From an uncultured Thermoplasmatales archaeon (GTDB taxonomy: Archaea; Thermoplasmatota; E2; DHVEG-1): a stretch of 64,000 nucleotides of DNA. Where the stretch lies: contig CAZTFR010000005.1 in the NCBI GenBank assembly GCA_964612945.1, positions 1,716-65,715 on the forward strand, in the 5' to 3' direction. The translations under genes were made by a program, and so were the position numbers. Below, one piece after another: positions 64 through 35,740 of the stretch (its first letter is position 1; the number at the start of each line of letters is the position of its first letter). The notes under the pieces are model-generated. The model had not been told where the DNA came from. It did no database searches and saw nothing but the letters and a program-made list of their open reading frames with translations.

Positions 64-1161
64 ATGACCAAACAAGATTACTACGAGATCCTTGGCGTAC
101 CCAAAGATGCAGACAAAAAACAAATTAAAAAAGCCTATAGAAAGCTTGCGCTCAAGTATCATCCAGACAAAAATCCATCAAAAGAAGCAACAGAAAAATT
201 CAAAGAAATCTCAGAAGCCTACGCGGTTTTAAGCGATGATGAAAAACGCCAGATGTATGATCAGTATGGTCATGCAGGAATCGATCAACGATACAGTACC
301 GAAGATATCTTCCGCGGCACCGATTTTCAGGACATCTTTCGAAACATGGGATTTGATTTTGGATTCGGCGTCGAAGACATCTTTGATCAATTCTTTGGAC
401 GACGAACCGGATTTCGCAGACAACCCCACCGACCACAGGGCCGCGATCTCCGCTATGACATCGAAATCAGCCTTGAAGATGCCTACCACGGCATGGAAAC
501 CGACATACGCATCCCCCGCACCGAACCCTGCGAGACCTGCAAAGGATCCGGTGCCAAACCAGGAACACAACCCAAACCCTGCCCGAAATGCAACGGCACC
601 GGACAAGCCCAGCAATCACGACGCACCGCCTTTGGCATGATGACCCAGATCACCACCTGCCCACAATGCAGAGGACAAGGAACTATCATAGACACACCCT
701 GCCCCGACTGCAAAGGACAGGGACTTATCCGCCGTACCCGAACCATCGAACTAAAAATACCACCAGGTGTCGACGAAGGATCACAACTCCGCCTCGAAGG
801 ACAAGGAGAACGACTGGGAAAACAAGGTATCGACGGCGATCTCTACATCGTCATACACATGAAAAAACACCCACAGTTCCACCGACGAGGAGACGACCTC
901 GTTCAAAAACAAACCATCACCTTTCCCCAAGCCGCACTCGGAGCACAACTCTCCATACCCACCATCACCAGCACCGAAACCATTAAAATCCCAAGCGGGA
1001 CACAACCTGGTGATCTCATCACCCTGAAAAACAAAGGAATGCCCCGCATCCAGGGCAGCAGACAGGGAAACATGTACATCGAAATTGACATCAAAACACC
1101 CACAAAACTTAATAGAAAAGCAAAAAAACTACTTGAAGAGCTCGAAAAAGAACTCTCCTAA
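64..1161 (+). CDS. dnaJ: Chaperone DnaJ (Hsp40), type I: J-domain, G/F region, four CxxCxGxG zinc-finger repeats, C-terminal domain
   Basis: N-terminus [12 protein letters not shown]...HPDKN carries the J-domain HPD motif. Four CxxCxGxG repeats follow ([32 protein letters not shown]). Length 365 aa. Coding strand is strongly C/A-rich. Confidence 0.95.
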
Positions 1162-1227
1162 CATAGACCGCAACATTTAAATAGAAGCTCTAACAAGTAT
1201 AGGGGTGACGACAAAAGGAGGCATGGC

Positions 1228-1791
1228 ATGGAGCCATTTGATAATAACAGAAATCGAAAAAGAAAAAATCCCTTCGACTTCATCTCAGACGACGAATTCG
1301 AAAAAATCTTTGATGAAATGCAAAAAATATTCGAACAAAACAACTTCAAAGACATCATAGAAGACATCATAAAAAACGGCATGGAACCAAACAAGAGGTT
1401 CATCCACGGATTCAGCATCAACCTTGGACCAGACGGCAAACCACACATCCAGGAATTTGGAAACAAACCCAAAAAAACACCCCAAGGAACCGCACGCATC
1501 TCCGACGAACAAGAACCACTCTCCGACATCATTGAAGGAGAAAGCGATGTCGCAATAACCGTCGAACTCCCCGGCGTCGAAAAAGACAACATCGATCTCA
1601 ACGTCACAGACACCATCCTCAACATCCATGTCGCCGACCCGCAGAGAAAATACCACAAAACCATTGATCTCCCCTGCGATGTGAAACCAAAAACCACCAA
1701 AGCAACCTACAAAAACGGAATCTTAGACATCGTCCTTAAGAAAAAAGACCCCGGTAAACCTGATGGCGGTTACCGCGTAACAATCGAATAA
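1228..1791 (+). CDS. hsp20: Small heat-shock protein, Hsp20/alpha-crystallin family
   Basis: C-terminal alpha-crystallin domain (ITVELPGVEKDNIDLNV...ILNIHV...GILDIVLKK). AAAGGAGG Shine-Dalgarno lies 5 nt upstream of the ATG. It is co-directional with dnaJ. Confidence 0.8.
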   Translation: MEPFDNNRNRKRKNPFDFISDDEFEKIFDEMQKIFEQNNFKDIIEDIIKNGMEPNKRFIHGFSINLGPDGKPHIQEFGNKPKKTPQGTARISDEQEPLSDIIEGESDVAITVELPGVEKDNIDLNVTDTILNIHVADPQRKYHKTIDLPCDVKPKTTKATYKNGILDIVLKKKDPGKPDGGYRVTIE

Positions 1792-1800
1792 AAAAAAAAA
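1791..1800 (-). terminator. Oligo-T tract (A-run on + strand) just downstream of the minus-strand regulator gene; candidate archaeal terminator
   Basis: A10-11 run between the convergent hsp20 and 1831..2211(-) genes. Archaeal terminators are oligo-T on the coding strand. Confidence 0.3.
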
Positions 1801-1830
1801 AGTAGAAAATAAGGGAGGGTCAACCCTTTA

Positions 1831-2211
1831 TTAATTTGTCCCTAACAATTGACGAAGCTGCGTGATATCATTTTGAACAGTTTCAACTTCTTTGAGTTTT
1901 TCCTCTTCAACAGTCTTTAAAATCTGTTTGAGATCACGTGTCGGCGAATAAATGTGCACAGGCCGGCCTTTGCCGTCTTTTTTCTGGTCACGTTTTCTTA
2001 CCCATCGTCGACGGCGTAGCTCCTGCATGGCAATACTGACTTCGGGTTGTCTAAGATTTGCAGCTTGTTCGATGTCTGAGCATTGACATTCATCAACTTG
2101 TGAGATATACATCAACGTTCTTGCCAAATTACGAGGCATCCCAAGTTTGACAAAGAGATCAATTGCCTTATCATCATTCTTATCCAAGGCGTATACTTCT
2201 TTTCGCTTCAT
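1831..2211 (-). CDS. Small winged-helix (TrmB/ArsR-like) transcriptional regulator
   Basis: 126-aa ORF. N-terminal wHTH-like segment (LARTLMYISQVDECQCSDIEQAANLRQPEVSIAMQELRRRRWV) with a basic wing. The family assignment is tentative. Confidence 0.55.
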   Translation of the reverse strand: MKRKEVYALDKNDDKAIDLFVKLGMPRNLARTLMYISQVDECQCSDIEQAANLRQPEVSIAMQELRRRRWVRKRDQKKDGKGRPVHIYSPTRDLKQILKTVEEEKLKEVETVQNDITQLRQLLGTN

Positions 2212-2491
2212 ATGATTTTTCTCCTCTTCTTCTCTTTTTTACCCCCACATCCATGAGGGTTGGTACCATGATGAAGAATGGAAGGGCCTATTTCTCTCTC
2301 AAGGGGAAAATATGAAGAAAAATGATAATCCCTTCCTTCTCTCCTCATCGCTTCCTCCAACGGATAGCGCTTGCTATCATGCAACACGTATACATTTTAG
2401 ATTTAAATTTGTTTCGAAATATTTAACGAAATTGATAGTTGTATAAAGAAAAAATTCCTAAATAAAAAAAAAAGGAGAAGAAGAGCGGTAA

Positions 2492-2731
2492 TTATTTCTT
2501 AACGCCGCCCCATTTTGAGATATAAATGATACCCAAGACACAGATAAGAGTTATCACAATTGCTACAACTACTGCGATTGCAGCACCAGCTGCATCTTGG
2601 AATTTATCCATGGTAATAACCATGTTTAACATTCCAATGATCACATCTCTCCAGATGAGAGCGATGATGAATCCAAACGCTCCCGCGATAGCAACAGCCA
2701 TGGTTGATTTTATTTCAGACATTGTTACCAT
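2492..2731 (-). CDS. Small two-TM membrane protein (hypothetical)
   Basis: 79-aa ORF with two hydrophobic helices. GGAGGAGG Shine-Dalgarno lies 9 nt upstream of the ATG on the minus strand. An oligo-T tract (A-run at 2464-2473 on +) follows the stop. Confidence 0.5.
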   Translation of the reverse strand: MVTMSEIKSTMAVAIAGAFGFIIALIWRDVIIGMLNMVITMDKFQDAAGAAIAVVVAIVITLICVLGIIYISKWGGVKK

Positions 2732-2811
2732 TTTATTATGCCTCCTCCATTTCCTACAATATGGTAGGTGGAAAAAAACGGTATGCTACTATAAATACTT
2801 AGCTACTTTTT

Positions 2812-3336
2812 TCAAAAGAGTTCTTTGAATCGTTCGATATTGGGGTTGACCATGCCACATTTTTTGACGGGGAAAATATTCTCAAGAAGTTCGATGCCAT
2901 CAATGATTTGCTGATACTCGCGCATGAGGCTTTCGCTAAAACGCTTTATTTGTTTGATATCTTTTGATGTTAAAATAAACAGCCAATCAAATGCTCCATG
3001 CAGATAGCTACTGCAGATGACATTAACCCCAAGTTCTTCTCCTTTTTTGTGGATGGTGAGCTTGACGATTTTATCTATTGCATCGCCTGCTGGTTTATTG
3101 GATCGTTTGATGAGCATGTAGAAATGTTTGAGTTCTAGTTTTTCAAAATCAGCAACGGCATAGTAGCCCCAGATAGTTTTGTTTTTTTCCAGTCGTTTGA
3201 TAATTCGCCAGACTTTTTGTCGTGAAAAACCGCATTTTTTTGCAATGTTGTCAATGCTTTCTTTTGCATTTGTTTGGAGTTCTGCAAGAATCTTTTTTTC
3301 ATCTCTATCTATTTGGGCTCGGCTTGATTTTGGCAT
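2812..3336 (-). CDS. lrp: Lrp/AsnC-family transcriptional regulator (HTH + RAM domain)
   Basis: N-terminal HTH (LDEKKILAELQTNAKESIDNIAKKCGFSRQKVWRIIKRLEKN) and a C-terminal RAM-like domain. Length 174 aa. Confidence 0.8.
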   Translation of the reverse strand: MPKSSRAQIDRDEKKILAELQTNAKESIDNIAKKCGFSRQKVWRIIKRLEKNKTIWGYYAVADFEKLELKHFYMLIKRSNKPAGDAIDKIVKLTIHKKGEELGVNVICSSYLHGAFDWLFILTSKDIKQIKRFSESLMREYQQIIDGIELLENIFPVKKCGMVNPNIERFKELF

Positions 3337-3362
3337 AATACTACCTCCCCGTTACCAAAAGA

Positions 3363-3797
3363 CTATAACATTCTTCTCTTAAATAGCTTACTCTTTGTAC
3401 CATTTATTTCATCTATAGTGATTTTTCCAAGTGTCTTCGTTGATTGTTGTGCAGAAATGAGGGTGTGGACTTGTTTGGTGTGTTCGTTTACCGTAAGAAC
3501 TCCGATGTGGTTGCCAATGAGGGTGTATTGGTGTTTTCGCAGCAGGCTGTAGATGTTCATGAGAGGAACAGCAAGGTAGACGTAGTCGGCGCCAAGTTGG
3601 TAGTTTTTGAGTTGGATGAGTGCTTTTTTCCAATCGCTGAGTTTGAGTTCTACTGCGATGACGTGGGTGTTGTTGAGAGCGATGAGATCAGCGCGGCAGT
3701 ATCCGATGCGTATTTCTGAAAATACCTGGTATCCTTGTTGTTGGAAGTAGTGAGTGACAGGCGGGCGGAGTTCATGTTCCTTTGAGAAGTGTTGCAT
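3363..3797 (-). CDS. PD-(D/E)xK nuclease, Holliday-junction resolvase Hjc-like
   Basis: EHEL...GYQVF...RADLIALNNTHVIAVELK aligns with the Hjc ERELxxLLxxxGFxVxR...DLVA...IEVK core (E, D, E-x-K). Length 144 aa. It overlaps the 3' end of the upstream polB-like gene by 26 nt. Confidence 0.6.
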   Translation of the reverse strand: MQHFSKEHELRPPVTHYFQQQGYQVFSEIRIGYCRADLIALNNTHVIAVELKLSDWKKALIQLKNYQLGADYVYLAVPLMNIYSLLRKHQYTLIGNHIGVLTVNEHTKQVHTLISAQQSTKTLGKITIDEINGTKSKLFKRRML

Positions 3798-6018
3798 AGG
3801 TTTGTTTCCTCATTTTTTTGGTGTTTAGATAGTGTTCGAATGTTTCTTTGGTGTATCCAAAGGGGGTCAGTAGGCTTTCTGCGCATTTAGCGAGGTGCCG
3901 CCGGTAGAAATCACGGTCAGGGGTGGTTGTTTCGGTGAGAAATTCTGCGATTTTAACTCGGTTTCGGGGGTCAGATGCGTGTTCGTCGGTGACCAGGTAG
4001 CGGACGGTTTGTCCGGGTTCAAAGTGGATGCCTGCATCGCGGAGTTGTATCAGTGCAGCTTTGGTAAGCGTGTTTGCTTTGTAGTCGGTGATGTCTCGGC
4101 TGATCTGGATGGTAAAGAGGAGGTCTTGTAGGGGGACTGTGCCTTCGAGAAGATGTTGGTAAAACGTGAGAGGTATTTTGAGAGCATGGGGGATCTGTTC
4201 GTAGAATTCGGTGGTAGTATGTGCCTGGGCAAGCGTGGTAAGCATTTCTTTCTGCATGACTTTAAGAAACGGTGGTGTGTTTTTTTGTCTGAGTTCGACA
4301 CCGCGGATGCGTAGTTTTCCTGCTGTGTTGAGGCCGTAGTAGCGGTTGAGAGCACCAACGTCGGTGTTTTTGCTGGGGAGAAAGACGATCCAGTGATACG
4401 TTGCTTCGATGTCGATACGTATGCCTGTGTGGGTGCTGATGTGTCTGGCGAGCTGCTCCGGGGTGAGACGGGGCGTATACGGTTGTATCCACAGGGAGTC
4501 GACGATGCCATGCAGGACGTAGTAACCGTGATGTTCGACGAGGTTGATGGTGGAAAGCAGGATGTCGCGGCTGTAGGCGGTGATGCTTTCATGGCATTCG
4601 ATGCGTCCGTAGCGGGCGTTGCGGTAGCCGGTGTAGCCGAAGCAGACGAGAAGAATCCATTTCCAGGCTTGTTGGAGTTCTTCGTATGTTTTGGTGTTGT
4701 ACTGGGGGTGTCGGGCGCGTGCTTTAAAGCAGAATCGTCTGTTGAGTATGGGCTCCAGGACTTGGGGGATGAGTCCTTTTTGTTTGGTGCAGATGGGATA
4801 CTTCAGTTGAGGAACTCGGTGTGTGGAGGTGGGGCAGCAGGAGCAGAGCAGGGTTTCCGGGCTGATATTGTGTTGGACCATGATGTGGGGGTAGAGTGAG
4901 GCGTAGTCGAGTTCGATTGCGCCTTCATGCAGGCCGATGTGTGGTTCGAGGATGAGGCCGCCGCGGTCGGCATTGAGAAGATCCCAGCTGGTTTTCCAGG
5001 ATTCCGGTTGATTTTTCTTCCAGGGGATGAGATAGTCCTGGCTCATAGCGGTGTTGACCTGTATCTGGCTGATCGCCGTGCCGGGTCCCAGGCGGGAGAG
5101 CATCTGCAGAGGGATGTTTGCACAGCGGGAGATGTCCAGAAGCCCTCGCAGACCGCTTTCGCCGTAGAGAAACGAGTTTTTCTGGTCAAGATGCACGCGT
5201 CCTTTGAGGGTATAGAAGGGTGGTCGGTAGACGATGTGGCCATAGCTGAAGTAGGATTTTCCCTGTTTTGCAGGTGCTTCATGAATGTGATCTCGTCCCA
5301 GGGTGAACTGGTGACCGATTGCGGCCTGTTTGGCACGATGGTAGAGGTAGGGCAGAAGTGTGCTGTCTCCGTCGTGGGTGTAGATGATATCTGGGTCTGT
5401 TGTTTGGAGGTGTTTCATCGCCGAAAGCAGGGTGTCTGCCTCGTTTTCTTCCTGTATTTCCATGTCATCAAGGATGAGAGCGCGGAGAGGGTCATGATGT
5501 GTTTTGATTCGTGCGGTGGTGTTTCGGGTGGCAGACAGATGCAGAGTTTTATAAGAAGGAAGAGGGTAGTCGATTGCCCACTGATCATCATGGAGATGAA
5601 AACGGCGGCCGTCCCAGCTGACCTGAGCGTTGCAGAAGAGGTGATGGTCGTTGAGGTATCTGGTGGGCAGGCGGATGTCAACGTTGTAGAGCTGGTAGTG
5701 ATGGTAGTTTCCCCAGGAGTCGATAAGGGCGGGGAGCCGGTGGAAGGCTTCCAGTGTTTTTGGGATGACCGTTAGGAAAAGCGTGGGTTTGGAGGATCCC
5801 AGTGTTGTTTTGTTGTAGGTAAAGCAGTAGTGTTTAATTTCAGGGAGCTGCCGAAGGGTGCGGGCAAGTGCGGTGAGTTTTTCATGGGATGCCTTGATGG
5901 AGACGCTGGGATGGTAGGGAGGGTGTATTTTATAGGGACGATGTCTTCCGGTAAGCCAGATCGTCATCGTGTTGTGGTGAAAGTCAGGGTAGACGTCCAG
6001 GATGTGTCCATGTATCAC
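3772..6018 (-). CDS. polB: Family B DNA polymerase homologue (archaeal PolB-like), highly divergent and probably catalytically impaired
   Basis: Collinear with archaeal PolB: an N-terminal ILDVxY start, ExoI D-x-E (LDDMEI), FTLGRD, motif A DYASLYPH, motif B KWILLVCFGYTGY, motif C HGIVDS. The ExoII Asp, ExoIII Asp, motif-B N/S and the first motif-C Asp are all substituted. Extreme H/T/P/Y/Q-rich composition. GTG start. Confidence 0.85.
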   Translation of the reverse strand: MIHGHILDVYPDFHHNTMTIWLTGRHRPYKIHPPYHPSVSIKASHEKLTALARTLRQLPEIKHYCFTYNKTTLGSSKPTLFLTVIPKTLEAFHRLPALIDSWGNYHHYQLYNVDIRLPTRYLNDHHLFCNAQVSWDGRRFHLHDDQWAIDYPLPSYKTLHLSATRNTTARIKTHHDPLRALILDDMEIQEENEADTLLSAMKHLQTTDPDIIYTHDGDSTLLPYLYHRAKQAAIGHQFTLGRDHIHEAPAKQGKSYFSYGHIVYRPPFYTLKGRVHLDQKNSFLYGESGLRGLLDISRCANIPLQMLSRLGPGTAISQIQVNTAMSQDYLIPWKKNQPESWKTSWDLLNADRGGLILEPHIGLHEGAIELDYASLYPHIMVQHNISPETLLCSCCPTSTHRVPQLKYPICTKQKGLIPQVLEPILNRRFCFKARARHPQYNTKTYEELQQAWKWILLVCFGYTGYRNARYGRIECHESITAYSRDILLSTINLVEHHGYYVLHGIVDSLWIQPYTPRLTPEQLARHISTHTGIRIDIEATYHWIVFLPSKNTDVGALNRYYGLNTAGKLRIRGVELRQKNTPPFLKVMQKEMLTTLAQAHTTTEFYEQIPHALKIPLTFYQHLLEGTVPLQDLLFTIQISRDITDYKANTLTKAALIQLRDAGIHFEPGQTVRYLVTDEHASDPRNRVKIAEFLTETTTPDRDFYRRHLAKCAESLLTPFGYTKETFEHYLNTKKMRKQTYATLLKGT

Positions 6019-6873
6019 CTACTGCGTCCCTCCCACCGAGGGCGCTATTTTTTGAAGCGGGGTGAAGTCGTCAAGGCTTTTTTGTGCGGTATGGCAGTGA
6101 TTGATGTGTGCGGTGGTGTTTTGGTTGAGAAGATGAATATGTGTGTAGTGGTGACGGGTGGTAAGAGAAACGACTTCGTGGGCATGCTGGTAAAAGAGGG
6201 GTTTGAGCGGTCGTCGTTTCCAAAAGGAGCTTTTTGAGTGATGGGTAAGCAGGGTGATGAGCCGGTAGGTGGTGGTAAGTGTGTTGAGTTTTTGCAGGGT
6301 GTAGGTGAGAAGAGCGGTAGCTTCTTTTGCAGGGACATCAGGGTCAAAAAAAAGGGTGGGAAACATGCCAATGATAAGGGTGCGCGGGGTGATCTGCTTG
6401 ATCATGGGTTCAAGGTATTCTTCAACGAGTGTGGTGAGTTGGTAGACGGTAAAGGCACGGCAGAGATAGACATGTTTGAGGAGATGGTGTTGGTTGAGAT
6501 GAAGCTTTCGAGCGTATGAGGCGAGTTGGTAGGGGTTTGCCTGCATGCCGCCGTCCAGGTAGAGGGTGGTGCTTTTGAAGGTATGGTAGGTGGATGCACA
6601 GAGGCGGTCCGGGAGATCTTTTATGAGATCGCTGGTGCCATCGATTGCGATGAGCTGCCCGGCTTTGAAGCCACCGAGGAGACGGTCCAGAGTGGTGATG
6701 CCGGAGTGGATGAACAGCTCTGGTTGGCAGCGCTGCTGAGTGAGAAGAAGAGATCGATGTTGTGGTGCGTGCGAGTGATGCACAAGTGGTATGCTCATAA
6801 GAGATGGGTGCCCCCTACAGAAAAAATCTGGTGGTACGCAGGGGCATAGGCGGGTGATGTTAAAAAGATACAA
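6019..6873 (-). CDS. RadA/RadB (RecA-superfamily) paralogue with degenerate Walker A and B motifs (predicted pseudo-ATPase)
   Basis: SGITTLDRLLGG...LKHVYLCRAFTVYQL...LIIGMFPTLFFD aligns with RadB/RadA (TGSKSLDELLGGG...LKHIYVARAF...LLIVDS). The GxxGxGKT P-loop is replaced by IDGTSDLIKD, and the Walker-B Asp by Gly. Its TAG stop is immediately followed by the polB GTG, so the two are translationally coupled. The true start may be an internal Met. Confidence 0.65.
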   Translation of the reverse strand: MYLFNITRLCPCVPPDFFCRGHPSLMSIPLVHHSHAPQHRSLLLTQQRCQPELFIHSGITTLDRLLGGFKAGQLIAIDGTSDLIKDLPDRLCASTYHTFKSTTLYLDGGMQANPYQLASYARKLHLNQHHLLKHVYLCRAFTVYQLTTLVEEYLEPMIKQITPRTLIIGMFPTLFFDPDVPAKEATALLTYTLQKLNTLTTTYRLITLLTHHSKSSFWKRRPLKPLFYQHAHEVVSLTTRHHYTHIHLLNQNTTAHINHCHTAQKSLDDFTPLQKIAPSVGGTQ

Positions 6874-6909
6874 AGGGGGTCGTCGAAAGTATCTGCAACA
6901 GATAAAAAA

Positions 6910-7467
6910 TCAGAGATGAGATTGCTTTTTCTTTTTTTTCGATTTCTTAGAAGATGCTTCTTCTGTACCGAGATGCAGTGTTCCGGTGGGAAGCGGTTTT
7001 CCTTTTTCTACATAGGATTCTGCTCGATCAGAAAGGGATTGTTGCAGCTTAGTAAGTTCTCGTTCGAGCCTTTCGACTTCTTTTGTTTTTCCTTTCTGTT
7101 TGTATTCCTGGATTTTAGCCTGGAGAATCTCAATTTCTTTTTGAATCGTTTTGATCGCCTGAGCGACCCATTCCTCGATGTTTTGCTCGGTGAGCATCTC
7201 TTTAAGGCGTTGTTCGAACTGTGATCGATCAGTATCTTTGATTTTTGTATACGAACGTCTTTTGTAGGGATCAACAGATGCTGGTGTATGCAGTGGAGAT
7301 AGAGCAGCAGTCGTGCTTCCTTCTTTTTTGATGATCTCATTAATGCCCATACGAATAACATCACTCAGCGTCATCCCGAGCCGGTCTGCTATTTGAGTGA
7401 TATGCTGATACATCCACGGGGAAAGACGGATATGCACCATCGACTGCTCAGCTGATTTGTATACCAT
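6910..7467 (-). CDS. Ribbon-helix-helix (CopG/Arc-like) DNA-binding protein with a long K/E-rich coiled-coil tail
   Basis: N-terminal VHIRLSPWMYQHITQIADRLGMTLSDVIRMGINEII is a typical RHH beta-strand plus two helices. The C-terminal ~110 aa are heptad-like and charged, ending in a poly-Lys stretch. Confidence 0.5.
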   Translation of the reverse strand: MVYKSAEQSMVHIRLSPWMYQHITQIADRLGMTLSDVIRMGINEIIKKEGSTTAALSPLHTPASVDPYKRRSYTKIKDTDRSQFEQRLKEMLTEQNIEEWVAQAIKTIQKEIEILQAKIQEYKQKGKTKEVERLERELTKLQQSLSDRAESYVEKGKPLPTGTLHLGTEEASSKKSKKKKKQSHL

Positions 7468-7668
7468 TTTGATACCTTTTGTATATTAAAATAATATACA
7501 TATTTGGTCTATTTATAGTTTTTGTGCCAAAGCGTCAAAGAAACTCTCCGCCGCATCAGAACGTATTCCCCTGTTTTTTATTCGAAGCTTTTACAATAAA
7601 CATTATAATACCCCGACACCTTTATCCTTCAAGAAAAACAGAGTTATCTGTGGGGAGTTGGCATTCAT

Positions 7669-9105
7669 ATGACACAAGTAAGCTTTTACGGCGGCGTCGA
7701 CGAAATCGGCGGAAACAAGATTCTTCTCGAAGATCAAGACACCCGCATCTTTCTTGACTTCGGACTGGGCTTTAAACGACGGGGCATGTACTTTGAGGAA
7801 TTCCTCACCCCCCGATCTGCAAACGGCATCGGCGATTTTCTTGAACTCAACCTACTCCCGGACATCCCTGGCATCTACCGAACCGATCTGCTCAGCCATC
7901 TCGGACGAACCCCTGAAGACGTCACCGTCCAAGCAGTCCTCTTAAGTCACGCCCACGCCGATCACGCCAACTACATCTCCTTTCTCCACCAAGACATACC
8001 TGTCTACTGCGGGGAGACCTCAAAATATCTCCTGCAAGCAATCGAAGAACAATGCATCAGAAGCATCGAAAACGAGGTCACAAAATACAAAGAACGACCC
8101 ATCTACCGCGGCGACTACAAAAAACCACCTATCAAACGCACCTTCAACACCTTCCGAACCGGCGACACCGTACACATCGGATCCCTGGACATCGAACCCA
8201 TCCATGTCGACCACAGCGTCCCCGGTGCCTACGGCTTTCTCATCCACACCTCAGAGGGAACCATCGTCTACACCGGCGATCTGCGCATGCATGGAAAAAA
8301 CGCACAAATGACCACCGACTTCATCCAAAAAGCACGAAAAGCAAAACCAGTCGCCCTCATCACCGAAGGAACGCGCATCGACCTCCCCCAAACCGATGAA
8401 TCCGAACAAAACGTCTACCAGCAGTCCAAACAGGAAATAGAGCAATGCAAAAAACTTTCTATCGTCGACTTTAACTTCAAAGACATCGACCGGTTCACCA
8501 CGTTTTATCAAATCGCAAAAGACCTCGGAAGAACACTGGTCATCAGCTTCAAACACGCCTGCTTTCTCGAACGATACCACCAAGACAAAAAACTACAAGC
8601 CCCCAACAGCACCGACAAGCACATCAAACTTCTCAAACCCAAACGCCTCACCGGCACCTACATCGACGAAGACTACACCGACTACTATATAAAGAAACGA
8701 CTGAATTATGAAAACATTATCACCGCCGAAGACATCACCAAAAACCCCACACAGTACATGGTCGTCCTCAACTTCTACTACTTCAACCGAATGGTCGATC
8801 TCAAACCACATCACGGCGTCTACATCCACAGCCTCTCCGAACCCTTCAACGAAGAAATGGAAATCAGCTACGAACGCATGCACAACTGGCTCACCCACTA
8901 CCACCTCAAATTTGTCCAATCACACTGCTCCGGACACATCTCCGGACCAGATCTCAAAGACCTCATCCACAAAATCAACCCAAAACACCTCTTCCCCATC
9001 CACACCGAACACCCCGAGCTCTTCCAAGACTTCCCTATGCACGTCACACGCGTACAAGAAGGAAAAACATATACCCTACCCACGCAAAAAATACTAAACC
9101 ATTAG
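7669..9105 (+). CDS. rnj: Metallo-beta-lactamase/beta-CASP ribonuclease, archaeal RNase J-like
   Basis: Starts MTQVSFYGGVDEIGGNKILLE. HAHADH (the HxHxDH motif) is present, followed by a beta-CASP region. No N-terminal KH domains, so aCPSF1 is excluded. Length 478 aa. Confidence 0.75.
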   Translation: MTQVSFYGGVDEIGGNKILLEDQDTRIFLDFGLGFKRRGMYFEEFLTPRSANGIGDFLELNLLPDIPGIYRTDLLSHLGRTPEDVTVQAVLLSHAHADHANYISFLHQDIPVYCGETSKYLLQAIEEQCIRSIENEVTKYKERPIYRGDYKKPPIKRTFNTFRTGDTVHIGSLDIEPIHVDHSVPGAYGFLIHTSEGTIVYTGDLRMHGKNAQMTTDFIQKARKAKPVALITEGTRIDLPQTDESEQNVYQQSKQEIEQCKKLSIVDFNFKDIDRFTTFYQIAKDLGRTLVISFKHACFLERYHQDKKLQAPNSTDKHIKLLKPKRLTGTYIDEDYTDYYIKKRLNYENIITAEDITKNPTQYMVVLNFYYFNRMVDLKPHHGVYIHSLSEPFNEEMEISYERMHNWLTHYHLKFVQSHCSGHISGPDLKDLIHKINPKHLFPIHTEHPELFQDFPMHVTRVQEGKTYTLPTQKILNH

Positions 9106-9119
9106 GAGAATGAAACCCT

Positions 9120-10196
9120 ATGACTGATATCTATCAGTATGATAAAAAAAACGAACAAAACCTGATAAAAGCAGACTCTGTGAAACGCAAAAAAGAACAA
9201 TACATCGAAAATCTCAGAGAGGGAGATGCAGTCGGCGACTTTTTCGCTGTCAAATCCAAACGACCTCTCCGCCCTTACAAACGAGGAACCTTCTTTGAAC
9301 TCATCGCAGGCGACAAAACCGGCGATATCAGCATCAAATACTGGGGGGGAGACAACAAAGACCGCGTCAAACGACTCTACGACAGCTTCGACATCGGAGA
9401 CGTCATACAGATACGCACCGGCGCAGTTGAAATCTTTGAAGAAAAAATGCAAATATCAGTCAACGAACAAACCGGTGGTCTTCGAAAATGCGCACCCACA
9501 GAATACGATGCCTCAGATTTTCTTGCCACACTCACCGAAGAAGAAATTAACAATCTCTACAAAATCGTCGAAACAGAAATCAAAAATCTCACCAACAAAT
9601 CACTCCAAACCCTACTTGCCGAATTCTTCAACGACGCCACCTTTGTCAAACAATTCAAAGCATCGCCCTCAGCGATGACCCATCACCATAACTACATCGG
9701 CGGAAACCTCGAACACACCGTCGGCGTCATACAGCTCACCAAAACCATCTGCACACAATATCCAGATATCAACCAGGATCTTGTGATATGCGGAGCCATC
9801 CTTCATGATGTCGGAAAACTCAAAGAATACGAATACACCGCCGCCATAGGCAAAACCGATGAAGGCAACTTCATCGGACACATCGTCATGGGCGACCGCT
9901 GGATACAGGAAAAAATCGGCATACTCCGAAACAAAGGAACAGCCTTTGCCGAACCACTTGAATTACAACTCCGCCACATGATCTTAAGCCACCATGGCCG
10001 CTACGAATACGGATCACCACGGATGCCACAAACCACCGAAGCAGTCGTCCTCCACCAAGCAGATCTAATGGATTCACAGGTCAAAAACTATCTACAGAAT
10101 GTAAAAGACGCCAGAAAAAACTCTGACTCCGACTGGGCGTTTATTTATGATCCCGATGTGGGGATGAGACGACCCATGTATTTAGGAAAAGACTAA
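9120..10196 (+). CDS. OB-fold + HD-domain phosphohydrolase, YhaM-like 3'-5' exonuclease family
   Basis: An N-terminal OB-fold segment (GDAVGDFFAVKS...GDVIQIRTGAVEIFEEKMQISV) is followed by an HD domain (HHNYIGGNLEHT...ILHDVGK...HH). The architecture matches bacterial YhaM. Confidence 0.7.
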   Translation: MTDIYQYDKKNEQNLIKADSVKRKKEQYIENLREGDAVGDFFAVKSKRPLRPYKRGTFFELIAGDKTGDISIKYWGGDNKDRVKRLYDSFDIGDVIQIRTGAVEIFEEKMQISVNEQTGGLRKCAPTEYDASDFLATLTEEEINNLYKIVETEIKNLTNKSLQTLLAEFFNDATFVKQFKASPSAMTHHHNYIGGNLEHTVGVIQLTKTICTQYPDINQDLVICGAILHDVGKLKEYEYTAAIGKTDEGNFIGHIVMGDRWIQEKIGILRNKGTAFAEPLELQLRHMILSHHGRYEYGSPRMPQTTEAVVLHQADLMDSQVKNYLQNVKDARKNSDSDWAFIYDPDVGMRRPMYLGKD

Positions 10197-14811: not shown

Positions 14812-16788
14812 TTAGATTTTTTTGAGAAATGAATGAATATCCGAGAGAACATCAGAAGATTGCGAGAGATCATTGAGATATTTTTTGAAACGAACTGCTC
14901 GTTTATCTAAAATCAATGCAAGTCCTCGATCAGTTTCCGTGCGAATCAATCGACCAATCGATTGTTGGAGTTTTCGAGCTGTGGGGGCCTCCACGGTATA
15001 CTCCCAGCCTTTACCAAATTTGAGATCATAATATTTCTTTAGCCCACGCTGTCGAGCTGTTGGTTTAGGATAGGGAATACCTACGATGACTGCGATTTCA
15101 AGCTGTTTAGCGGGAAAATCCATCCCTTCACTGATGCGGCCACCCATCACAGACAGTAACGCTGCACCTTTGCCTTGTGATTCACCACAGGTCTTAAAAT
15201 CAGTAACTAAGTCCATGAGGTCCATCTGAGACATGGACTGTTCCTCAATGTAGAGCAGTCGTTGGATGTCATTGTATTGCTGCTGTTGTTTAAACGATGA
15301 GAGAATATTGAAACTAGGGAAAAACACAATGGTGTTCTGAGGAAAGGTGTTGCAGATCTCTTGAATATACGTCCACATTTTGGTAAGATTTTCTTCATTT
15401 CGCATGATGTCTTCATATCGTGTGGTGACATCGCGGGTGTACAAGATTTTTCGATTTTCTTTGGGAAAGGGAGAAGGATAAAAGACAAGTCCTGTATCAG
15501 TTGGGAGGTCGAGGGAGTCACGGTATTCCTCAAGTGGTTTGAGCGTGCCGGACATGTGAATGGTTGAGTGCACCTCTGAAAAAATACCGGCGCCCACGGA
15601 TGGATCCAGGCAATATGCTTCGATGCGTGGGTTTTTAGCCCGGGTGGTATCAACGACGAGTTTGATGTATTGGTCCATCTCAATGGCGGTCCAGAACTGT
15701 AAAAACACGCCGAGTTTATGCAGAAACGAGCGGGGAAGTTTTCCTTCTTTTTGCCGGTATTCCTGGATTTTTTCACCATAGGCTACAAGATCGGCGATGA
15801 TGTCTTGAAGGACTTGTGAGGTGATCTTCAGTCTGCTGAGTATCTCTGTTTCTAGTTCGTGGGAGGGGATGAGTGCGTCTTCTTTTTCATATTTTGATAC
15901 TCTTCGCAACCCGTTTTCAAGCAGACCGTAGATGTAATTATCCCGTAGTGAGTTGACAATTTCGATGAGCATTTTGCAGAATTCTGAGACCAGAATTCGT
16001 CCATCAGCAAGTGAAGGATCACCGAATTTATCTGCCTCAATAAGACAGGTTTTCAGCATGAAATAAGTGAGCTGTGCGGAATGAATATCGCGGAGATAAT
16101 CCGGGAGGTTATGTGCTTCATCGATGATGAGAATGATGTCTTCTTCTGCAATTGAGAGCCAGTCAAGAAGCATGTTGCGGATGTTTTTGTCAAAAATATA
16201 GATGTAGGGGACCACAACGAGAAGGGATTCGGCCATGAGTTGTTTGTTTACTTCATAGGGGCAGATGGTATGTTTTTTGCAGTAGCTGATCATTTCTTCT
16301 GCGGTGGGCACGTGTTGTTTGGCCCACTGAATTGTTTCTGACACAAGGTCTTTATTGTGAAGAAACGCCCGATAATACGGGCAGCCCTTACGTTTTTGGG
16401 GGTTGGTTGCCTGTTTTTTTTGGTTAGCGCAGAACCGGGAGAGTTCTTCTGAGGAGCCATTGGCAATATCTGGATCATCTCGTGCAAGAATACACATGTT
16501 TGCACGGCCCTGCATGCCCACACCATGGATCTGGTTATTTTGGGTTTTTTCTTTTATCGCCCGCAGTTCCATGATGACCTGGCGTTGTTGAGCGTTTGTA
16601 CGGGTGGTGTAGATGATTTTTTTCTCCTGCTCAAGGGAAAGAGGCAGTGCTGCAGAGAGCGTGCAGATGGTTTTTCCCGTCCCGGTCCCTGATTCGAAGA
16701 CAAAATGGGTATGAGCGTTGATTGCGTTGGTGACATCACGGATGATGTTGTCCTGATTTTTACGTGGCGTGTACGGAAAAAAGTCCAT
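14812..16788 (-). CDS. xpd: ATP-dependent DNA helicase XPD/Rad3 (DinG family, SF2) with FeS-cluster cysteines
   Basis: YTPRKNQ...FESGTGTGKT (Walker A), IIDEAHNLPDY (DEAH box). Conserved Cys residues lie between motifs I and II, consistent with a 4Fe-4S domain. Length 658 aa. Confidence 0.9.
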   Translation of the reverse strand: MDFFPYTPRKNQDNIIRDVTNAINAHTHFVFESGTGTGKTICTLSAALPLSLEQEKKIIYTTRTNAQQRQVIMELRAIKEKTQNNQIHGVGMQGRANMCILARDDPDIANGSSEELSRFCANQKKQATNPQKRKGCPYYRAFLHNKDLVSETIQWAKQHVPTAEEMISYCKKHTICPYEVNKQLMAESLLVVVPYIYIFDKNIRNMLLDWLSIAEEDIILIIDEAHNLPDYLRDIHSAQLTYFMLKTCLIEADKFGDPSLADGRILVSEFCKMLIEIVNSLRDNYIYGLLENGLRRVSKYEKEDALIPSHELETEILSRLKITSQVLQDIIADLVAYGEKIQEYRQKEGKLPRSFLHKLGVFLQFWTAIEMDQYIKLVVDTTRAKNPRIEAYCLDPSVGAGIFSEVHSTIHMSGTLKPLEEYRDSLDLPTDTGLVFYPSPFPKENRKILYTRDVTTRYEDIMRNEENLTKMWTYIQEICNTFPQNTIVFFPSFNILSSFKQQQQYNDIQRLLYIEEQSMSQMDLMDLVTDFKTCGESQGKGAALLSVMGGRISEGMDFPAKQLEIAVIVGIPYPKPTARQRGLKKYYDLKFGKGWEYTVEAPTARKLQQSIGRLIRTETDRGLALILDKRAVRFKKYLNDLSQSSDVLSDIHSFLKKI

Positions 16789-21420: not shown

Positions 21421-23838
21421 TTAGCTGATTACAAACGGACCTAAAGACAACGCAAAGGAAGTAAGATTTTCACGTCCAACAGAGACACAGATTTGAATTC
21501 TACCAAGCCCAAACTGAGCAGTCTCTACCGAACCAATATCTCCACAGTTCAAATCATACAAGGCAATCGTTTTTGGATGACGAGGATACAAAAGAATACC
21601 CTCTAAAGCAGTAACCGTAAGTGTAATATTCATCTCAGAAACAGCAAAATCACCCATATTAATAACTTCACCAAAGAGTTTTATCGGAGCTGTTTTCGTC
21701 CGCAACAAAAGACTGGTGACGGTGACCTGTTTAGCCGGAGACCAGTCACTTTGCACCCCATACGAATCACGAGCTTTTACTCGAACAAGATAGCTGCCTT
21801 GTTCTTTCCATAGATGAAAGGATTTCGGTTCAGAACGCCATCCACTTGTTGTTCCATCACCCCAATCAAAAAGATAAAACACCTCATCACCCTCCGGATC
21901 AGAAACCGCTGAGGTAAAAAACGTATGATTCCTATTAACAGAGAGACCTCCTGGCCCCGCAGGGGCGCCTGGAGTTTCAGGTGGCGCACTGAGTTCTATG
22001 ATCAGGGTGGGATCTCCAAAAAGATTTAACCCATAGTAGACCCATCGCATACATCCTTCATTAATTCGATAGAGGTTATCCTCCTTGGAATCCTGATTTG
22101 CCTGACCAAGCGAAGTAAAACTTTCTTCAAATATGGCATCATAAAACTCCCGATGAAACCGCTGTGAAGGACCATCTGTTGTTCCTTGTGCACCCCAGCC
22201 ATACCGCGCATTCCAAATCCCTGCAAATGCCGCATGAGCCGTTTTCACCGTAAACGATTCTGCAATACAATCTACACCAGTAGGATTATCAAATCCACCA
22301 GCCATACAACCCTGTGAATACATAAAAGCGGGATACTCATTTGTAAGCTCTTGTTCTACATCAAGGATAGAAAGTTTCATATTTGTTTGATAAAACGCAT
22401 GTCCATCATGATTAATTAAACCGACATTCTGATTTATCCGGTCGATGAGTTCGGATTTCGGCCAATTATTATCAGACCAGTTTCTATCATACAGCTTATC
22501 GATTGCATACACGCCAGAGGGGATACCCATAGTAGTATACCAATACTTGTCACACTGATCGATCAAGTCATCCATCGAATTTCCACCCCATCGTGCCACT
22601 CCAGTAAAACCAAGATCCTCCCCAACCATCAACGCCGTACTAAGACAGGGATCTTCAACGGTGAGATAGGTACAGGTTTTTTCAACAAAATTCTCGACCT
22701 CACTGAGCGTATCAACACAGGCACGTCCCACATAGACTTCAGCAATAAGATCAACATCGCCACCTTCATCGCCATCATCTGGTTCACCCCATTTATCATC
22801 ATTATCATAGTTAAACGTTCCATCCAGGCATCCATAGTAAAAATCCGAAGGCATCTCCATGACGTCTCCACCAGACCATGCCTCAACCCAAAGTTGCTGA
22901 GCAGGGACCTGCTCCGTATCCCCACCGAGTAACACATAATCTACGCCTTGATCAAGATACTCCGTTGAGATATATTCTCGAATCGCTTGGGGTGTTGTCC
23001 TATTTATTTCTTCTATTGTAACAATAGATGTCTGTAAGCCTTGCTCTTCATGGACAGATTTCAAGGGCAAAAATCCCTCCTTCAGTTGTTCTGTAGTAAT
23101 AATGAGAAGATGATGAGGTGAAAACCCCGTAGTTCGTGGCTGATCTGCGGAGAGCGGATAACTTTGAAGTTGCTCAGGGTTATCAACTCTGTTTTGTACA
23201 GCAAGATAGTCCCCATAGCTGTCTCGATACAGAGGTGAAAGGTTTTTATCTGTCGAAGATGTCTGTATGGTAAGCTGAATATTAGAGGAAAAGCAAAGTG
23301 ACTGATCAGAAGAATCATATACTATGGGTTTCAACTGAAGAACTAGCAGTTGATAGCCCCTGAAGTAATAGGTGCCAATAACCCTATACGAGCTACTATC
23401 AGACGGTGACGGCTCTGAAATAGCTGGTATAACTCGATTCTTAACAGTGCAAAAAGGTACAGGATATTCTGCATTTTTCAGACGAAATCCACTTCCTAAC
23501 GATATTGTTTCATCTGAAGAACACCTGATATCTTCTAGCTGCGAGTTTGCCGGAAGCAAAATGATTGCTGATTGAATAGGTAGTAGGGGATGTTCGGGAT
23601 TTGCTGACTGACTTATACCCGGTATCTGCACGAAATCATAGGGTTGATCATCAATTATCTTTTGGGTGAGGATGGGGTCTGAAAATATATACTCAAGCTG
23701 TATCGAATTTGGTGGCAATTGAGATTTTTTTAGACCACTGATGGATATCGATGAACCAATGAAGAGGAAGATTAAAAAAGTAGCAAGAAGGAGACTGAGA
23801 AAACAGCCCTGTTTTCTCATGTCCTGCCACCAAGGCAT
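21421..23838 (-). CDS. Secreted peptidase C25 (gingipain-like cysteine protease) with a PKD domain and a C-terminal type-A module
   Basis: Signal peptide present. YVLLGGDTEQVPAQ, SDFYYG and VYVGRACVDTLSEV match the gingipain YVLLIGD..IPAK / IGRFSCES motifs. Catalytic His (INHDGHAF) and Cys (SQGCMAGGFD) are retained. PKD motif FDWGDGTTSGW. C-terminus ...FGLGRIQI...SLGPFVIS. Confidence 0.75.
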   Translation of the reverse strand: MPWWQDMRKQGCFLSLLLATFLIFLFIGSSISISGLKKSQLPPNSIQLEYIFSDPILTQKIIDDQPYDFVQIPGISQSANPEHPLLPIQSAIILLPANSQLEDIRCSSDETISLGSGFRLKNAEYPVPFCTVKNRVIPAISEPSPSDSSSYRVIGTYYFRGYQLLVLQLKPIVYDSSDQSLCFSSNIQLTIQTSSTDKNLSPLYRDSYGDYLAVQNRVDNPEQLQSYPLSADQPRTTGFSPHHLLIITTEQLKEGFLPLKSVHEEQGLQTSIVTIEEINRTTPQAIREYISTEYLDQGVDYVLLGGDTEQVPAQQLWVEAWSGGDVMEMPSDFYYGCLDGTFNYDNDDKWGEPDDGDEGGDVDLIAEVYVGRACVDTLSEVENFVEKTCTYLTVEDPCLSTALMVGEDLGFTGVARWGGNSMDDLIDQCDKYWYTTMGIPSGVYAIDKLYDRNWSDNNWPKSELIDRINQNVGLINHDGHAFYQTNMKLSILDVEQELTNEYPAFMYSQGCMAGGFDNPTGVDCIAESFTVKTAHAAFAGIWNARYGWGAQGTTDGPSQRFHREFYDAIFEESFTSLGQANQDSKEDNLYRINEGCMRWVYYGLNLFGDPTLIIELSAPPETPGAPAGPGGLSVNRNHTFFTSAVSDPEGDEVFYLFDWGDGTTSGWRSEPKSFHLWKEQGSYLVRVKARDSYGVQSDWSPAKQVTVTSLLLRTKTAPIKLFGEVINMGDFAVSEMNITLTVTALEGILLYPRHPKTIALYDLNCGDIGSVETAQFGLGRIQICVSVGRENLTSFALSLGPFVIS

Positions 23839-29642: not shown

Positions 29643-29646
29643 ATCT

Positions 29647-35592: not shown

Positions 35593-35740
35593 ATTTATCC
35601 CCTTACTTCTATTGTTTAGACGACTATTTTATATATAGTTTATTTGGAATTCATCGAATTAATTATGAATATAATATAAAAATGATGATATGTATTATAA
35701 CTCTTTGTTAGGATACGAAAAAAAGAGAGGAGATATGATG

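Follow-up and report, generated by a model that had tools for sequence, protein, structure and literature searches.

An ATPase-dead RadA relative, iRadA, encoded directly before PolB2 in a Thermoplasmatota operon that lacks PPB2

We analyzed a 64-kb stretch of DNA from an uncultured Thermoplasmatales archaeon, hereafter the window, and found that one of its minus-strand genes encodes iRadA, the previously described ATPase-dead relative of RadA/Rad51 that is paired in archaea with the damage-tolerance polymerase PolB2. We consider it likely that this iRadA is a catalytically dead RadA/Rad51-family accessory subunit of an archaeal PolB2 (Dpo2-type) translesion polymerase system, and this is the best explanation of the locus. 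An inactivated RadA beside PolB2 is a published association, and the locus is no new discovery. An operon of inactivated RadA, PolB2, and arCOG07300 has been described (PMC4104785). The iRadA proteins fall into arCOG04294, arCOG07763, and arCOG08101 and are found in a PolB2-PPB2-iRadA operon (Makarova et al. 2014; Timinskas et al. 2025); the iRadA/PolB2 operon was described in 2013-2014 (Makarova 2014), and its complex was modeled in 2025 (Timinskas 2025). Two points go beyond the published accounts of this operon cited here, namely, the absence of PPB2 from the window operon and the presence of a PD-(D/E)XK gene beside PolB2. The genes of the locus and the junction between iRadA and PolB2 are as follows.

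3363..3797, minus strand: PD-(D/E)XK-fold protein, 144 aa (D37, E50, K52), overlapping the PolB2 3′ end by 26 nt
3772..6018, minus strand: PolB2, 748 aa; Pfam DNA_pol_B at 1.6e-33; motif A ELDYASLYP intact; motif C HGIVDS
6016..6021, minus strand: iRadA-PolB2 junction; iRadA TAG (6019-6021), then directly the PolB2 GTG (6016-6018), in the same frame, with no PPB2 between
6019..6798, minus strand: iRadA coding sequence, 259 aa, ATG start, TAG stop; RecA/Rad51 core without the RadA N-terminal helical domain
6799..6873, minus strand: N-terminal extension from a TTG, as first proposed; not conserved, probably 5′ leader or promoter region
6910..7467, minus strand: upstream gene in the same orientation as iRadA; ribbon-helix-helix (RHH) domain, coiled coil, Lys-rich tail

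A preliminary description of this DNA had placed an ORF with a RecA-like core at 6019..6873. The ORF is present on the minus strand and the gene is real, but the TTG at 6873 adds 25 residues that are common to no relative, and we favor the ATG at 6798 as the start codon. This start is backed by the public gene call (P0001, 259 aa) and by all homologues, whose start codons lie ∼26 to 30 residues ahead of a conserved P(D/E)(I/L) motif.

As a single sequence, the window protein matches Pfam Rad51 only weakly (E = 0.004-0.005; 16.5-16.9 bits versus a cut-off of 22), and its best match in the PDB is RAD51D (E = 7e-4). The same Pfam model is matched by 24 of 24 aligned homologues, with a best E of 1e-12, and a profile of the family retrieves Pyrococcus furiosus RadA at 3.8e-8 and RAD51D at 8e-8 from the PDB. 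The RecA-superfamily relationship proposed at the outset is therefore well above chance. An AlphaFold2 (AF2) model of the protein (pLDDT 84, pTM 0.78) has a disordered stretch at residues 1 to 24 (pLDDT < 50) and a core that begins at about residue 28. Foldseek matched this model to RAD51D, RAD51, DMC1, and RadA with E ∼1e-13 and query-normalized TM scores of 0.66 to 0.72. The protein thus has the RecA/Rad51 core fold without the RadA N-terminal domain. It has neither the N-terminal HhH domain nor the functional ATPase site of a RadA/Rad51 recombinase, and it scores below the cut-offs of that family.

Alignment of the family HMM to RadA places the remnants of the ATPase motifs within the core, together with two segments that are characteristic of the family.

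6616..6648, minus strand: Walker A relic AIDGTSDLIKD (residues 51-61); Lys replaced by Ile59 and Thr by Lys60, loop one residue shorter (HMM alignment)
6544..6561, minus strand: YLDGGM (residues 80-85) at the position of RadA IDTE, which aligns with LDGG; catalytic Glu replaced by Gly
6439..6459, minus strand: family signature RAFTVYQ (residues 114-120), invariant in 46/46 homologues
6361..6381, minus strand: Walker B relic TLIIGMF (residues 140-146); LLIVD aligns with LIIG, Asp replaced by Gly144
6064..6084, minus strand: C-terminal PIP-box-like QKSLDDF (residues 239-245), a putative PCNA-binding site

In this alignment, RadA GEFGSGKT corresponds to DGTS-DLIK of the window protein, in agreement with the motif mapping from which both Walker motifs had been called degenerate. 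The Walker A Lys, the catalytic Glu, and the Walker B Asp are all replaced, so that, judged from its sequence, the protein is probably the pseudo-ATPase of the RadA/Rad51 family that it had been taken for. The loss of these three residues is conserved in 46 of 46 close homologues, which all lack a P-loop, and 2 of 149 representatives of 50%-identity clusters contain a Walker A pattern, the one match that was located (in P0264) sitting away from the P-loop position. Within the relic itself, G54 and S56 are invariant and I59 is nearly so, and the alignments identify the loss of the ATPase motifs as a family trait. An alternative start or frame that restores a P-loop was rejected, since a six-frame scan of 5701..7300 contains no [AG]x4GK[ST]; its single GKT belongs to the coiled coil of the RHH protein encoded upstream.

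Nucleotide binding survives degenerate motifs in some Rad51 paralogues and pseudo-ATPases, and iRadA conserves D82 of YLDGG along with several glycines that line the pocket. Both observations would fit a cryptic switch that binds ATP or another ligand in a noncanonical pocket. We regard such a switch as highly improbable. The P-loop is shortened and has lost its second Gly as well as its Lys, the catalytic Glu and Walker B Asp are gone, and all three losses are fixed across the iRadA family.

The family is large, with 438 clusters matching the profile at E ≤ 1e-10; a metagenome scan that used the single window protein as query found no relative. The window iRadA is the most divergent member among the aligned homologues, at a mean identity of 42.6% versus 59% among the others. 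The RAFTVYQ signature is present in relatives from Bathyarchaeia and Nitrososphaeraceae as well. A clamp-binding motif near the C terminus is frequent in iRadA, if not universal: Qxx[LIMV]xx[FYW] falls within the last 30 residues of 43 of the 46 homologues. The window protein carries a candidate motif of this kind, QKSLDDF, in which the aligned family never varies at Q239 and L242 and hardly at F245. Its position is that given for the Thermoplasmata iRadA motif, QSHLEAFG at 239 (PMC11791011 supplement). The window motif lacks a second aromatic residue and is followed by a further 13 residues.

The protein had also been labeled RadB-like, which proved imprecise. A close relative scored 3.6e-11 with the NCBIfam RAD51 model, 1.3e-8 with RadA, and 2.9e-5 with RadB, all far under the cut-offs (24 bits versus 172.4 for the RadB model, TIGR02237). 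The window protein matched none of the NCBIfam models, TIGR02237 giving no match at E ≤ 0.01, and no chain named RadB appears among the 55 PDB profile matches of the family. Close to this label is a reading in which the protein is a RadB-type mediator, works alongside RadA or Hjc in homologous recombination, and has no part in the action of the polymerase. The weak RadB score of the relative, weak KaiC matches, and the nature of RadB as a short RadA paralogue without the N-terminal domain are all in keeping with such a mediator. Rad51 and RadA nonetheless outscore RadB, and the window protein has neither the intact Walker A and B motifs nor the score of a RadB. In addition, iRadA is strictly linked to PolB2 in its relatives, and the RAFTVYQ signature and PIP-like tail are specific to the iRadA family. 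A RadB-type role is accordingly very unlikely, and we retain the assignment to iRadA.

The gene that follows iRadA in the same orientation encodes a family-B polymerase of the PolB2 group, as the preliminary description had noted in part: the iRadA TAG stands directly before the PolB2 GTG, and a GGAGG sequence lies 10 nt upstream of this GTG. The two ORFs share a frame across the single TAG. The frame is also shared in a second locus, L045, across a TAA and an 18-nt spacer, and probably not in a third, L046. Stop-codon readthrough to an iRadA-PolB2 fusion was considered and set aside, the shared frame being compatible with chance. In alignments with 24 PolB2 sequences and with Pyrococcus abyssi PolB, the DTD of motif C reads IVD, the first Asp being replaced by Ile, and HGIVDS is common to all Thermoplasmatota PolB2, to which the window PolB2 is 53 to 59% identical. 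The proofreading exonuclease site is degraded: Exo II reads GDSTLLPYL where GDNF(D/A)FPYL is expected, no alignment to P. abyssi PolB was obtained for the Exo I region, and the Pfam match covers the exonuclease domain only partly. Nearly all positions invariant in the 24-sequence alignment are kept, including the LGRD loop region (...LPYLYHRA...LGRD, residues ∼220-244), which is conserved. The earlier term "crippled polymerase" is thus outdated, since the partner is a typical PolB2 and the Sulfolobus member of the group, Dpo2, is active. Dpo2 is a robust polymerase without proofreading and a damage-inducible translesion extender (PMC8764526; PMC7390963), and the isolated enzyme is active in vitro without partners (PMC8764526; PMC11791011).

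In relatives, the gene order is iRadA-PPB2-PolB2, and, in line with published accounts, one subgroup also has SRAP and DUF72 genes in the vicinity. PPB2 (arCOG07300/DUF8156, with an MGRT N terminus) directly follows iRadA in 21 of 22 Thermoplasmatota representative genomes, in 6 of 6 Bathyarchaeia loci, and in other loci too, and the published model gives it a key part in the complex (PMC11791011). The window operon does not contain it. Within the 64-kb window, tblastn found no PPB2 (best E = 0.62), nor did a PPB2 HMM run on every stop-to-stop segment of 25 aa or more in the six-frame translation (best E = 0.45). We built this HMM from 29 sequences and used it in place of our copy of Pfam, in which bona fide PPB2 has no match and which seems to lack DUF8156. 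The upstream RHH/coiled-coil protein gave no signal with it, and SRAP and DUF72 genes are likewise not in the window. A PPB2 that is hidden in the window or fused to a neighbor was rejected on the basis of these searches and because iRadA and PolB2 are collinear with their relatives and carry no extra domain. A relic of PPB2 start codons before the iRadA stop was also considered; the match, 10 of 15 nt, is too weak to claim.

The junction without PPB2 is not confined to the window. An independent lineage from metagenomes, at 49% identity, has it too (L045 and the P0004 contig, the latter with a gene call), as L046 probably does. Three PPB2-less iRadAs share the changes E48 to Q/H (E in 40/40 others), S122 to T/A (S in 40/40), and N186 to H (N in 38/40). 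These observations raise the possibility, which we hold tentatively, that PPB2 was lost rather than moved and that a two-subunit PolB2-iRadA variant, possibly with the downstream PD-(D/E)XK nuclease, functions independently of it. Consistent with such a variant are the lack of PPB2 from 64 kb of a 66-kb contig and the in vitro activity of isolated Dpo2. Conversely, PPB2 could sit elsewhere in the genome, the search covering the 64-kb window; haloarchaea have separate arCOG07763-arCOG07300 pairs (PMC4104785); PolB2 retains its family-invariant positions almost completely, the LGRD loop region among them; and the shared substitutions may reflect only common ancestry. It is conceivable, if doubtful, that a Thermoplasmatota sublineage (the window, P0004/L045, and probably L046) runs its PolB2 translesion system without PPB2, iRadA alone partnering PolB2 through lineage-specific changes such as E48 to Q/H, perhaps together with the PD-(D/E)XK nuclease.

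The missing PPB2 and the divergence of the window iRadA could also mark a decaying relic, in which iRadA or the whole operon is nonfunctional and on its way to loss, the deletion of PPB2 being the first step. A clearly decayed locus is known in a relative (L023), in which iRadA is truncated and runs into a PD-(D/E)XK fragment and neither PPB2 nor PolB2 is present, and the possible start-codon remnant before the iRadA stop would point the same way, weakly. Against decay, none of the three ORFs (259, 748, and 144 aa) is disrupted, iRadA retains all 47 invariant family positions (in an alignment that includes the window protein), the invariant positions of PolB2 are nearly all retained, and the AF2 model of iRadA is confident. 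Moreover, lineages now only 49% identical have the PPB2-less arrangement in common, implying that selection has maintained it for long. We thus judge decay very unlikely.

The 3′ end of PolB2 overlaps the PD-(D/E)XK gene, and a small gene of this kind lies beside PolB2 in 17 other loci that we fetched; it forms a conserved fourth member of the PolB2 operon in many Thermoplasmatota. A PDB sequence search with its product returned no match. Because it has no strong Pfam match, neighborhood surveys based on Pfam would miss it. At the other end of the locus, the RHH gene is no conserved neighbor of iRadA in other loci, which makes it doubtful that this gene belongs to the operon. A horizontal-transfer island was rejected as an explanation of the base composition, since high C3/low G3 is not specific to the operon and is common to most genes at 64..10196.

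A scaffold or regulatory role had been suggested for the protein from the first, and proteins of the iRadA family are currently viewed as noncatalytic accessories or scaffolds (PMC4104785; PMC11791011). Published work offers a heteropentamer model, a RadA-like docking motif, and clamp-binding motifs in iRadA (PMC11791011), the architecture being a purely computational prediction. From its motifs, the window iRadA would neither bind nor hydrolyze ATP and would act as a structural partner of PolB2. If the published model applies, PolB2 would dock on iRadA via a loop that mimics the RadA/Rad51 oligomerization motif, and the PIP-like box QKSLDDF may tether the complex to PCNA. Once tethered, PolB2, being deficient in proofreading, could elongate primer ends beyond lesions. 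We infer that the predicted architecture, and the translesion extender activity seen in Sulfolobus experiments, hold in the window organism. Points that count against this reading are the lack of PPB2 from the operon and the window, the marked divergence of the window iRadA, and the form of its PIP-like motif, with no second aromatic residue and 13 residues behind it.

Compared with RadA, Rad51, and Dmc1, the window iRadA has the same core fold (Foldseek E ∼1e-13) and a collinear alignment over ∼160 residues. It differs in lacking the N-terminal helical domain, Walker A and B, and the catalytic Glu, and it is not expected to form filaments or to exchange strands; in the model, a short segment (residues 188-198) appears to occupy the site of the long L2 loop of RadA. 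Euryarchaeal RadB is likewise a short RadA paralogue without the N-terminal domain. RadB retains a working P-loop and differs from the window iRadA in genomic context. The eukaryotic Rad51 paralogues (RAD51D, XRCC2, and others) are accessory, nonrecombinase RecA-fold proteins too, and RAD51D is both the best single-sequence PDB match and the top fold match of the window protein. They act on Rad51 filaments in recombination, whereas iRadA is a predicted polymerase subunit, and the likeness is one of analogy, not orthology. A parallel is provided by Pol V, in which a RecA-family subunit of a translesion polymerase is bound via an oligomerization-like motif (PMC11791011). There, RecA is an active recombinase with ATP in the complex, the polymerase belongs to the Y family, and the small subunit is UmuD′ rather than PPB2.

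The closest comparison is with published iRadA. The window protein agrees with it in its RecA/Rad51 core without the N-terminal domain, in the loss of the ATPase residues, in adjoining a co-oriented PolB2 whose DxD motif reads IVD, and in its PCNA-binding-like motif at the position given for Thermoplasmata; its close relatives lie in canonical type 1a operons, with SRAP and DUF72 nearby in one subgroup. It differs in the lack of PPB2 from the operon and from the 64-kb window, in its divergence (∼43% mean identity to the other aligned homologues, the lowest of all), in the 13-residue tail after the PIP-like motif, and in the PD-(D/E)XK gene coupled to the 3′ end of PolB2. Because an inactivated RadA beside PolB2 is already published, the locus opens no new question, and its residual value is comparative. 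Operons without PPB2 are a natural test of the need for PPB2 in the predicted PolB2 complex, and the widely conserved PD-(D/E)XK gene that Thermoplasmatota couple to PolB2 is a candidate for a further component of archaeal damage tolerance. Were the PPB2-less system real, it would be a naturally occurring minimal mutasome of the predicted kind, extended by a nuclease that is absent from the published accounts cited here. For groups that study PolB2/Dpo2, the PPB2-less operon and the PD-(D/E)XK gene are leads that should come as no surprise.

The preliminary description had reported a RecA-like protein with degenerate Walker A and Walker B motifs beside a polymerase. This observation was correct and its interpretation directionally right; the feature, however, belongs to a family already described, the inactivated RadA proteins (iRadA), of which it is a divergent member, in a described operon with the Dpo2-type polymerase PolB2. 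The features concerned are:

3363..3797, minus strand: 144-aa ORF, overlapping the PolB2 ORF by 26 nt
3772..6018, minus strand: PolB2 ORF, 748 aa, family-B polymerase, GTG start
6019-6021, minus strand: TAG stop codon of iRadA, immediately adjoining the PolB2 GTG (6016-6018)
6019..6873, minus strand: iRadA ORF as first described, with a TTG start
6910..7467, minus strand: 185-aa protein directly upstream of iRadA, same orientation

The iRadA ORF is real, but its TTG start was not upheld. The public gene call (P0001, 259 aa, 100% identical to the window protein) starts at an ATG at 6798, and the 25-residue extension that the TTG would give is unsupported because all homologues begin ∼26 to 30 residues ahead of the conserved core.

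The window iRadA alone matched Pfam Rad51 marginally (E = 0.004–0.005, under the gathering score) and RAD51D in the PDB at E = 7e-4. Its 45 homologues (∼248 aa, E from 1e-46 to 1e-64) mostly carry a precomputed Rad51 domain, and Pfam Rad51 was matched by 24 of 24 aligned members (best 1e-12). The family profile retrieved Pyrococcus furiosus RadA (3.8e-8), and RAD51D (8e-8), followed by dozens of RadA, Rad51, and Dmc1 chains from the PDB. From the alignment, AF2 produced a confident model (pLDDT 84, pTM 0.78), with residues 1 to 24 and the C-terminal tail disordered, and Foldseek matched it to RAD51D, RAD51, DMC1, and RadA at E ∼1e-13. Profile and structure searches thus both support the RecA-superfamily relationship. 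HMM alignment to RadA placed the same motifs as the preliminary description, whose segment-by-segment mapping was therefore right. Walker A (GEFGSGKT in RadA) is DGTS-DLIK in the window, one residue shorter, with Lys replaced by Ile59 and Thr by Lys60; the catalytic Glu of IDTE is Gly in LDGG; and the Asp of Walker B (LLIVD) is Gly144 in LIIG. The P-loop motif was absent from every frame of 5701..7300, so that no alternative start or frame restores it there. The window protein is a RecA-fold protein with dead motifs.

This loss is conserved. Among the 46 iRadA proteins from the homologue search with the window sequence, none contains [AG]x4GK[ST], whereas RAFTVYQ and L[IL][IL]G[MKR] occur in all. 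Searched against 1.84 billion cluster representatives, the iRadA profile found 438 clusters at E ≤ 1e-10, and a Walker A regular expression matched two of the best 149 (P0264 and P0282); the P0264 match (AIKAFGKT) immediately precedes the conserved YVDG segment rather than occupying the P-loop position. Distant members from Bathyarchaeia and Nitrososphaeraceae are without Walker A, and some retain Asp at the Walker B position. A cryptic nucleotide binder is regarded as a highly improbable reading of the window protein. Five loci from Nitrososphaeraceae/Nitrososphaerales MAGs (L037, L038, L039, L041, and L042) carry at ∼5300..6700 iRadA-like ORFs of ∼330 to 420 codons, stop to stop, with the SRAFTVYQL signature, a zinc-ribbon-like stretch (CxxC...CPxC) at the N-terminus, and again no Walker A. 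Neither PPB2, the usual third operon partner, nor PolB2 was found within ∼6 kb of these ORFs, which appear to form an orphan, domain-extended iRadA branch.

The protein had been called RadB-like; membership in the RecA family stands, but Rad51 and RadA score better than RadB. In NCBIfam, the relative P0005 matched RAD51 at 3.6e-11, RadA at 1.3e-8, and RadB at 2.9e-5, and no chain named RadB occurs among the PDB profile matches of the family. Judged by sequence profiles, Rad51 and RadA are closer to the family than RadB is. We regard a RadB-type mediator as very unlikely.

PolB2, in turn, is not a crippled enzyme: the Sulfolobus islandicus member, Dpo2, polymerizes robustly, lacks proofreading, and can extend termini that are mismatched or paired with a lesion (PMC8764526). 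Dpo2 is damage-inducible and is responsible for targeted mutagenesis (PMC7390963). The window PolB2 has an intact motif A (ELDYASLYP), and in its motif C (HGIVDS) the first Asp of DTD is Ile, as in 24 of 24 aligned PolB2 proteins. Alignment with P. abyssi PolB puts GDSTLLPYL in place of the Exo II segment GDNF(D/A)FPYL and leaves the Exo I region unaligned.

In relatives, the gene order is iRadA, an 84-aa gene (Pfam DUF8156, MGRTVPTFR...), and PolB2, with SRAP and DUF72 genes upstream in one subgroup. The 84-aa type of product, arCOG07300, was described as a small helical protein that is also a member of inactivated-RadA/PolB2 operons (Makarova 2014, PMC4104785). Timinskas et al. (2025, PMC11791011) named the three proteins PolB2, iRadA, and PPB2 and modeled a PolB2-iRadA-(PPB2)3 heteropentamer, in which PolB2 docks on iRadA via a motif mimicking RadA/Rad51 oligomerization and one PPB2 reaches in between PolB2 and iRadA with its N-terminal MGRT arm. 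Their supplement types Thermoplasmata operons as "1a (iRadA-PPB2-PolB2)", with SRAP and DUF72 neighbors and an IVD motif. Many iRadA proteins, in their analysis, end in a PCNA-binding motif, and for a Thermoplasmata iRadA the supplement gives QSHLEAFG at position 239. The window iRadA has QKSLDDF at residues 239 to 245, at the same position; Q239 and L242 are invariant in the alignment and F245 nearly so, and the motif is present in 43 of 46 homologues. The window protein is thus very probably the iRadA of the PolB2 system, sharing its general role: it would bind PolB2 as a non-catalytic subunit and may recruit PCNA. The architecture of the complex is computational (PMC11791011), and a 2026 review still treats it as a prediction with experimental verification to come, whereas PolB2 activity and damage induction are experimental in Sulfolobales.

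We scanned one genome per species, obtaining 36 loci (22 from Thermoplasmatota, the rest from Bathyarchaeia and Nitrososphaerales). A PPB2 HMM placed PPB2 directly after iRadA in 21 of 22 Thermoplasmatota loci, all six from Bathyarchaeia, and one from Nitrososphaeraceae; the match in L019 is shorter than elsewhere. The sole Thermoplasmatota exception, L023, is decayed: in this Thermoplasmatales MAG (429..1248), iRadA breaks off at ∼residue 210 and continues into a piece of the PD-(D/E)XK gene described below, and PPB2 and PolB2 are missing. That the window iRadA is itself a decaying relic was given very little weight.

The window operon has no room for PPB2, the iRadA stop and PolB2 start being contiguous, and its PolB2 aligns with relatives from the first residue (VIHGHILDVYPD versus MLSGNILDVYPD). 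GGAGG sits 10 nt 5′ of the PolB2 GTG, and the gene set is presumably co-transcribed. In the 64-kb window, nearly all of the 66,432-bp contig, PPB2 was found neither by tblastn with three PPB2 queries (best E = 0.62) nor by an unfiltered search of all stop-to-stop segments of ≥25 aa with an HMM from 29 sequences (best E = 0.45). The two ORFs share a reading frame with one TAG between them (6016..6060, minus strand). The last 15 nt ahead of the iRadA stop, GTGGGAGGGACGCAG (VGGTQ), match the PPB2 start ATGGGCCGGACGGTG (MGRTV) at 10 of 15 positions, a resemblance that may be a deletion relic or chance.

The closest homologue, P0004 (49–51% identity), is followed after 18 nt by a gene of at least 314 aa that reaches the contig end. 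In L045, whose iRadA is 97% identical to P0004, TAA and 18 nt precede MTPGFILDAY..., a PolB2 N-terminus. In L046 (79% to P0004), no MGRT start was found in the 40 nt remaining after iRadA. The PPB2-less junction of the window thus recurs in a second metagenomic lineage (L045) and probably in a third (L046):

window 6016..6021: PPB2-less junction
L045 2190..2303: PPB2-less junction
L046 920..1018: probable PPB2-less junction

These three iRadAs share substitutions at E48 (Q/H, versus E in 40 of 40 others), S122 (T/A, versus S in 40 of 40), N186 (H, versus N in 38 of 40), and L240 (K/R, versus L in 39 of 40). Recurrence and common substitutions fit the loss or relocation of PPB2 in one clade; that the window lineage truly functions without it is doubtful.

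The 144-aa protein is conserved in many Thermoplasmatota operons: homologues (44–57% identity) overlap or just follow the 3′ end of PolB2 in 16 other fetched loci (L007/L015, which are one contig, L014, L018, L020, L021, L024-L030, L050, L054, and L055). In one further locus, L017, the gene adjoins PolB2 on the opposite strand. None of 72 further database proteins of this ∼140-aa family has a precomputed Pfam domain. Invariant residues include E7, D37, E50, and K52, and members weakly matched many Pfam families of the PD-(D/E)XK type (MTES_1575, Hjc, PDDEXK_9, AHJR-like, Mrr_cat, and MmcB-like) and, under the cut-off, NCBIfam sce7726_fam (7e-10). Its confident AF2 model (pLDDT 90) matched XisH-family (E = 1.4e-5), AF2093, SfsA, and Hjc structures, all nuclease-fold. 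From modeled fold and linkage, this PD-(D/E)XK protein is a plausible candidate nuclease partner of the PolB2 system in Thermoplasmatota.

The best matches of the window iRadA, PolB2, and downstream gene are all from Thermoplasmatota MAGs, at ≤60% identity, which makes a divergent Thermoplasmatota archaeon the probable source of the window. The 185-aa protein, with a RelB/CopG-like ribbon-helix-helix N-terminus, long coiled coil, and Lys-rich tail, is a database singleton and was found beside iRadA in no other locus. Composition is heterogeneous: at third positions, C is 0.40 to 0.55 and G ∼0.1 in most genes of 64..10196 (DnaJ, Hsp20, PD-(D/E)XK, PolB2, iRadA, a beta-CASP/metallo-beta-lactamase RNase, and an HD/OB-fold protein), whereas most other genes have GC3 of ∼0.33. 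PolB2, iRadA, the RNase, and the PD-(D/E)XK protein are His-rich (6–8%). Farther off lie:

14812..16788, minus strand: XPD/Rad3-type helicase (DEAD_2, HBB, Helicase_C_2), a further DNA-repair gene, ∼8 kb from the PolB2 operon
21421..39850, minus strand: run of five very large genes (805–1981 aa) with Peptidase_C25, subtilase S8, PKD, NosD/beta-helix, laminin-G, and BNR domains, whose products are probably proteases and adhesins that are secreted or lie on the surface

The published survey (PMC11791011) counts PolB2 and iRadA equally (1823 each); PPB2-less operons fall outside its scope because it tabulates only operons with all three genes, and a figure legend restricts to such groups. Its Table S1, in which neighbors required Pfam matches better than 1e-5, does not list the PD-(D/E)XK gene among the 20 most abundant PolB2 neighbors. 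Beyond the known family and operon, the window thus adds a PPB2-less variant and a PD-(D/E)XK neighbor unreported in the PolB2/iRadA literature examined.
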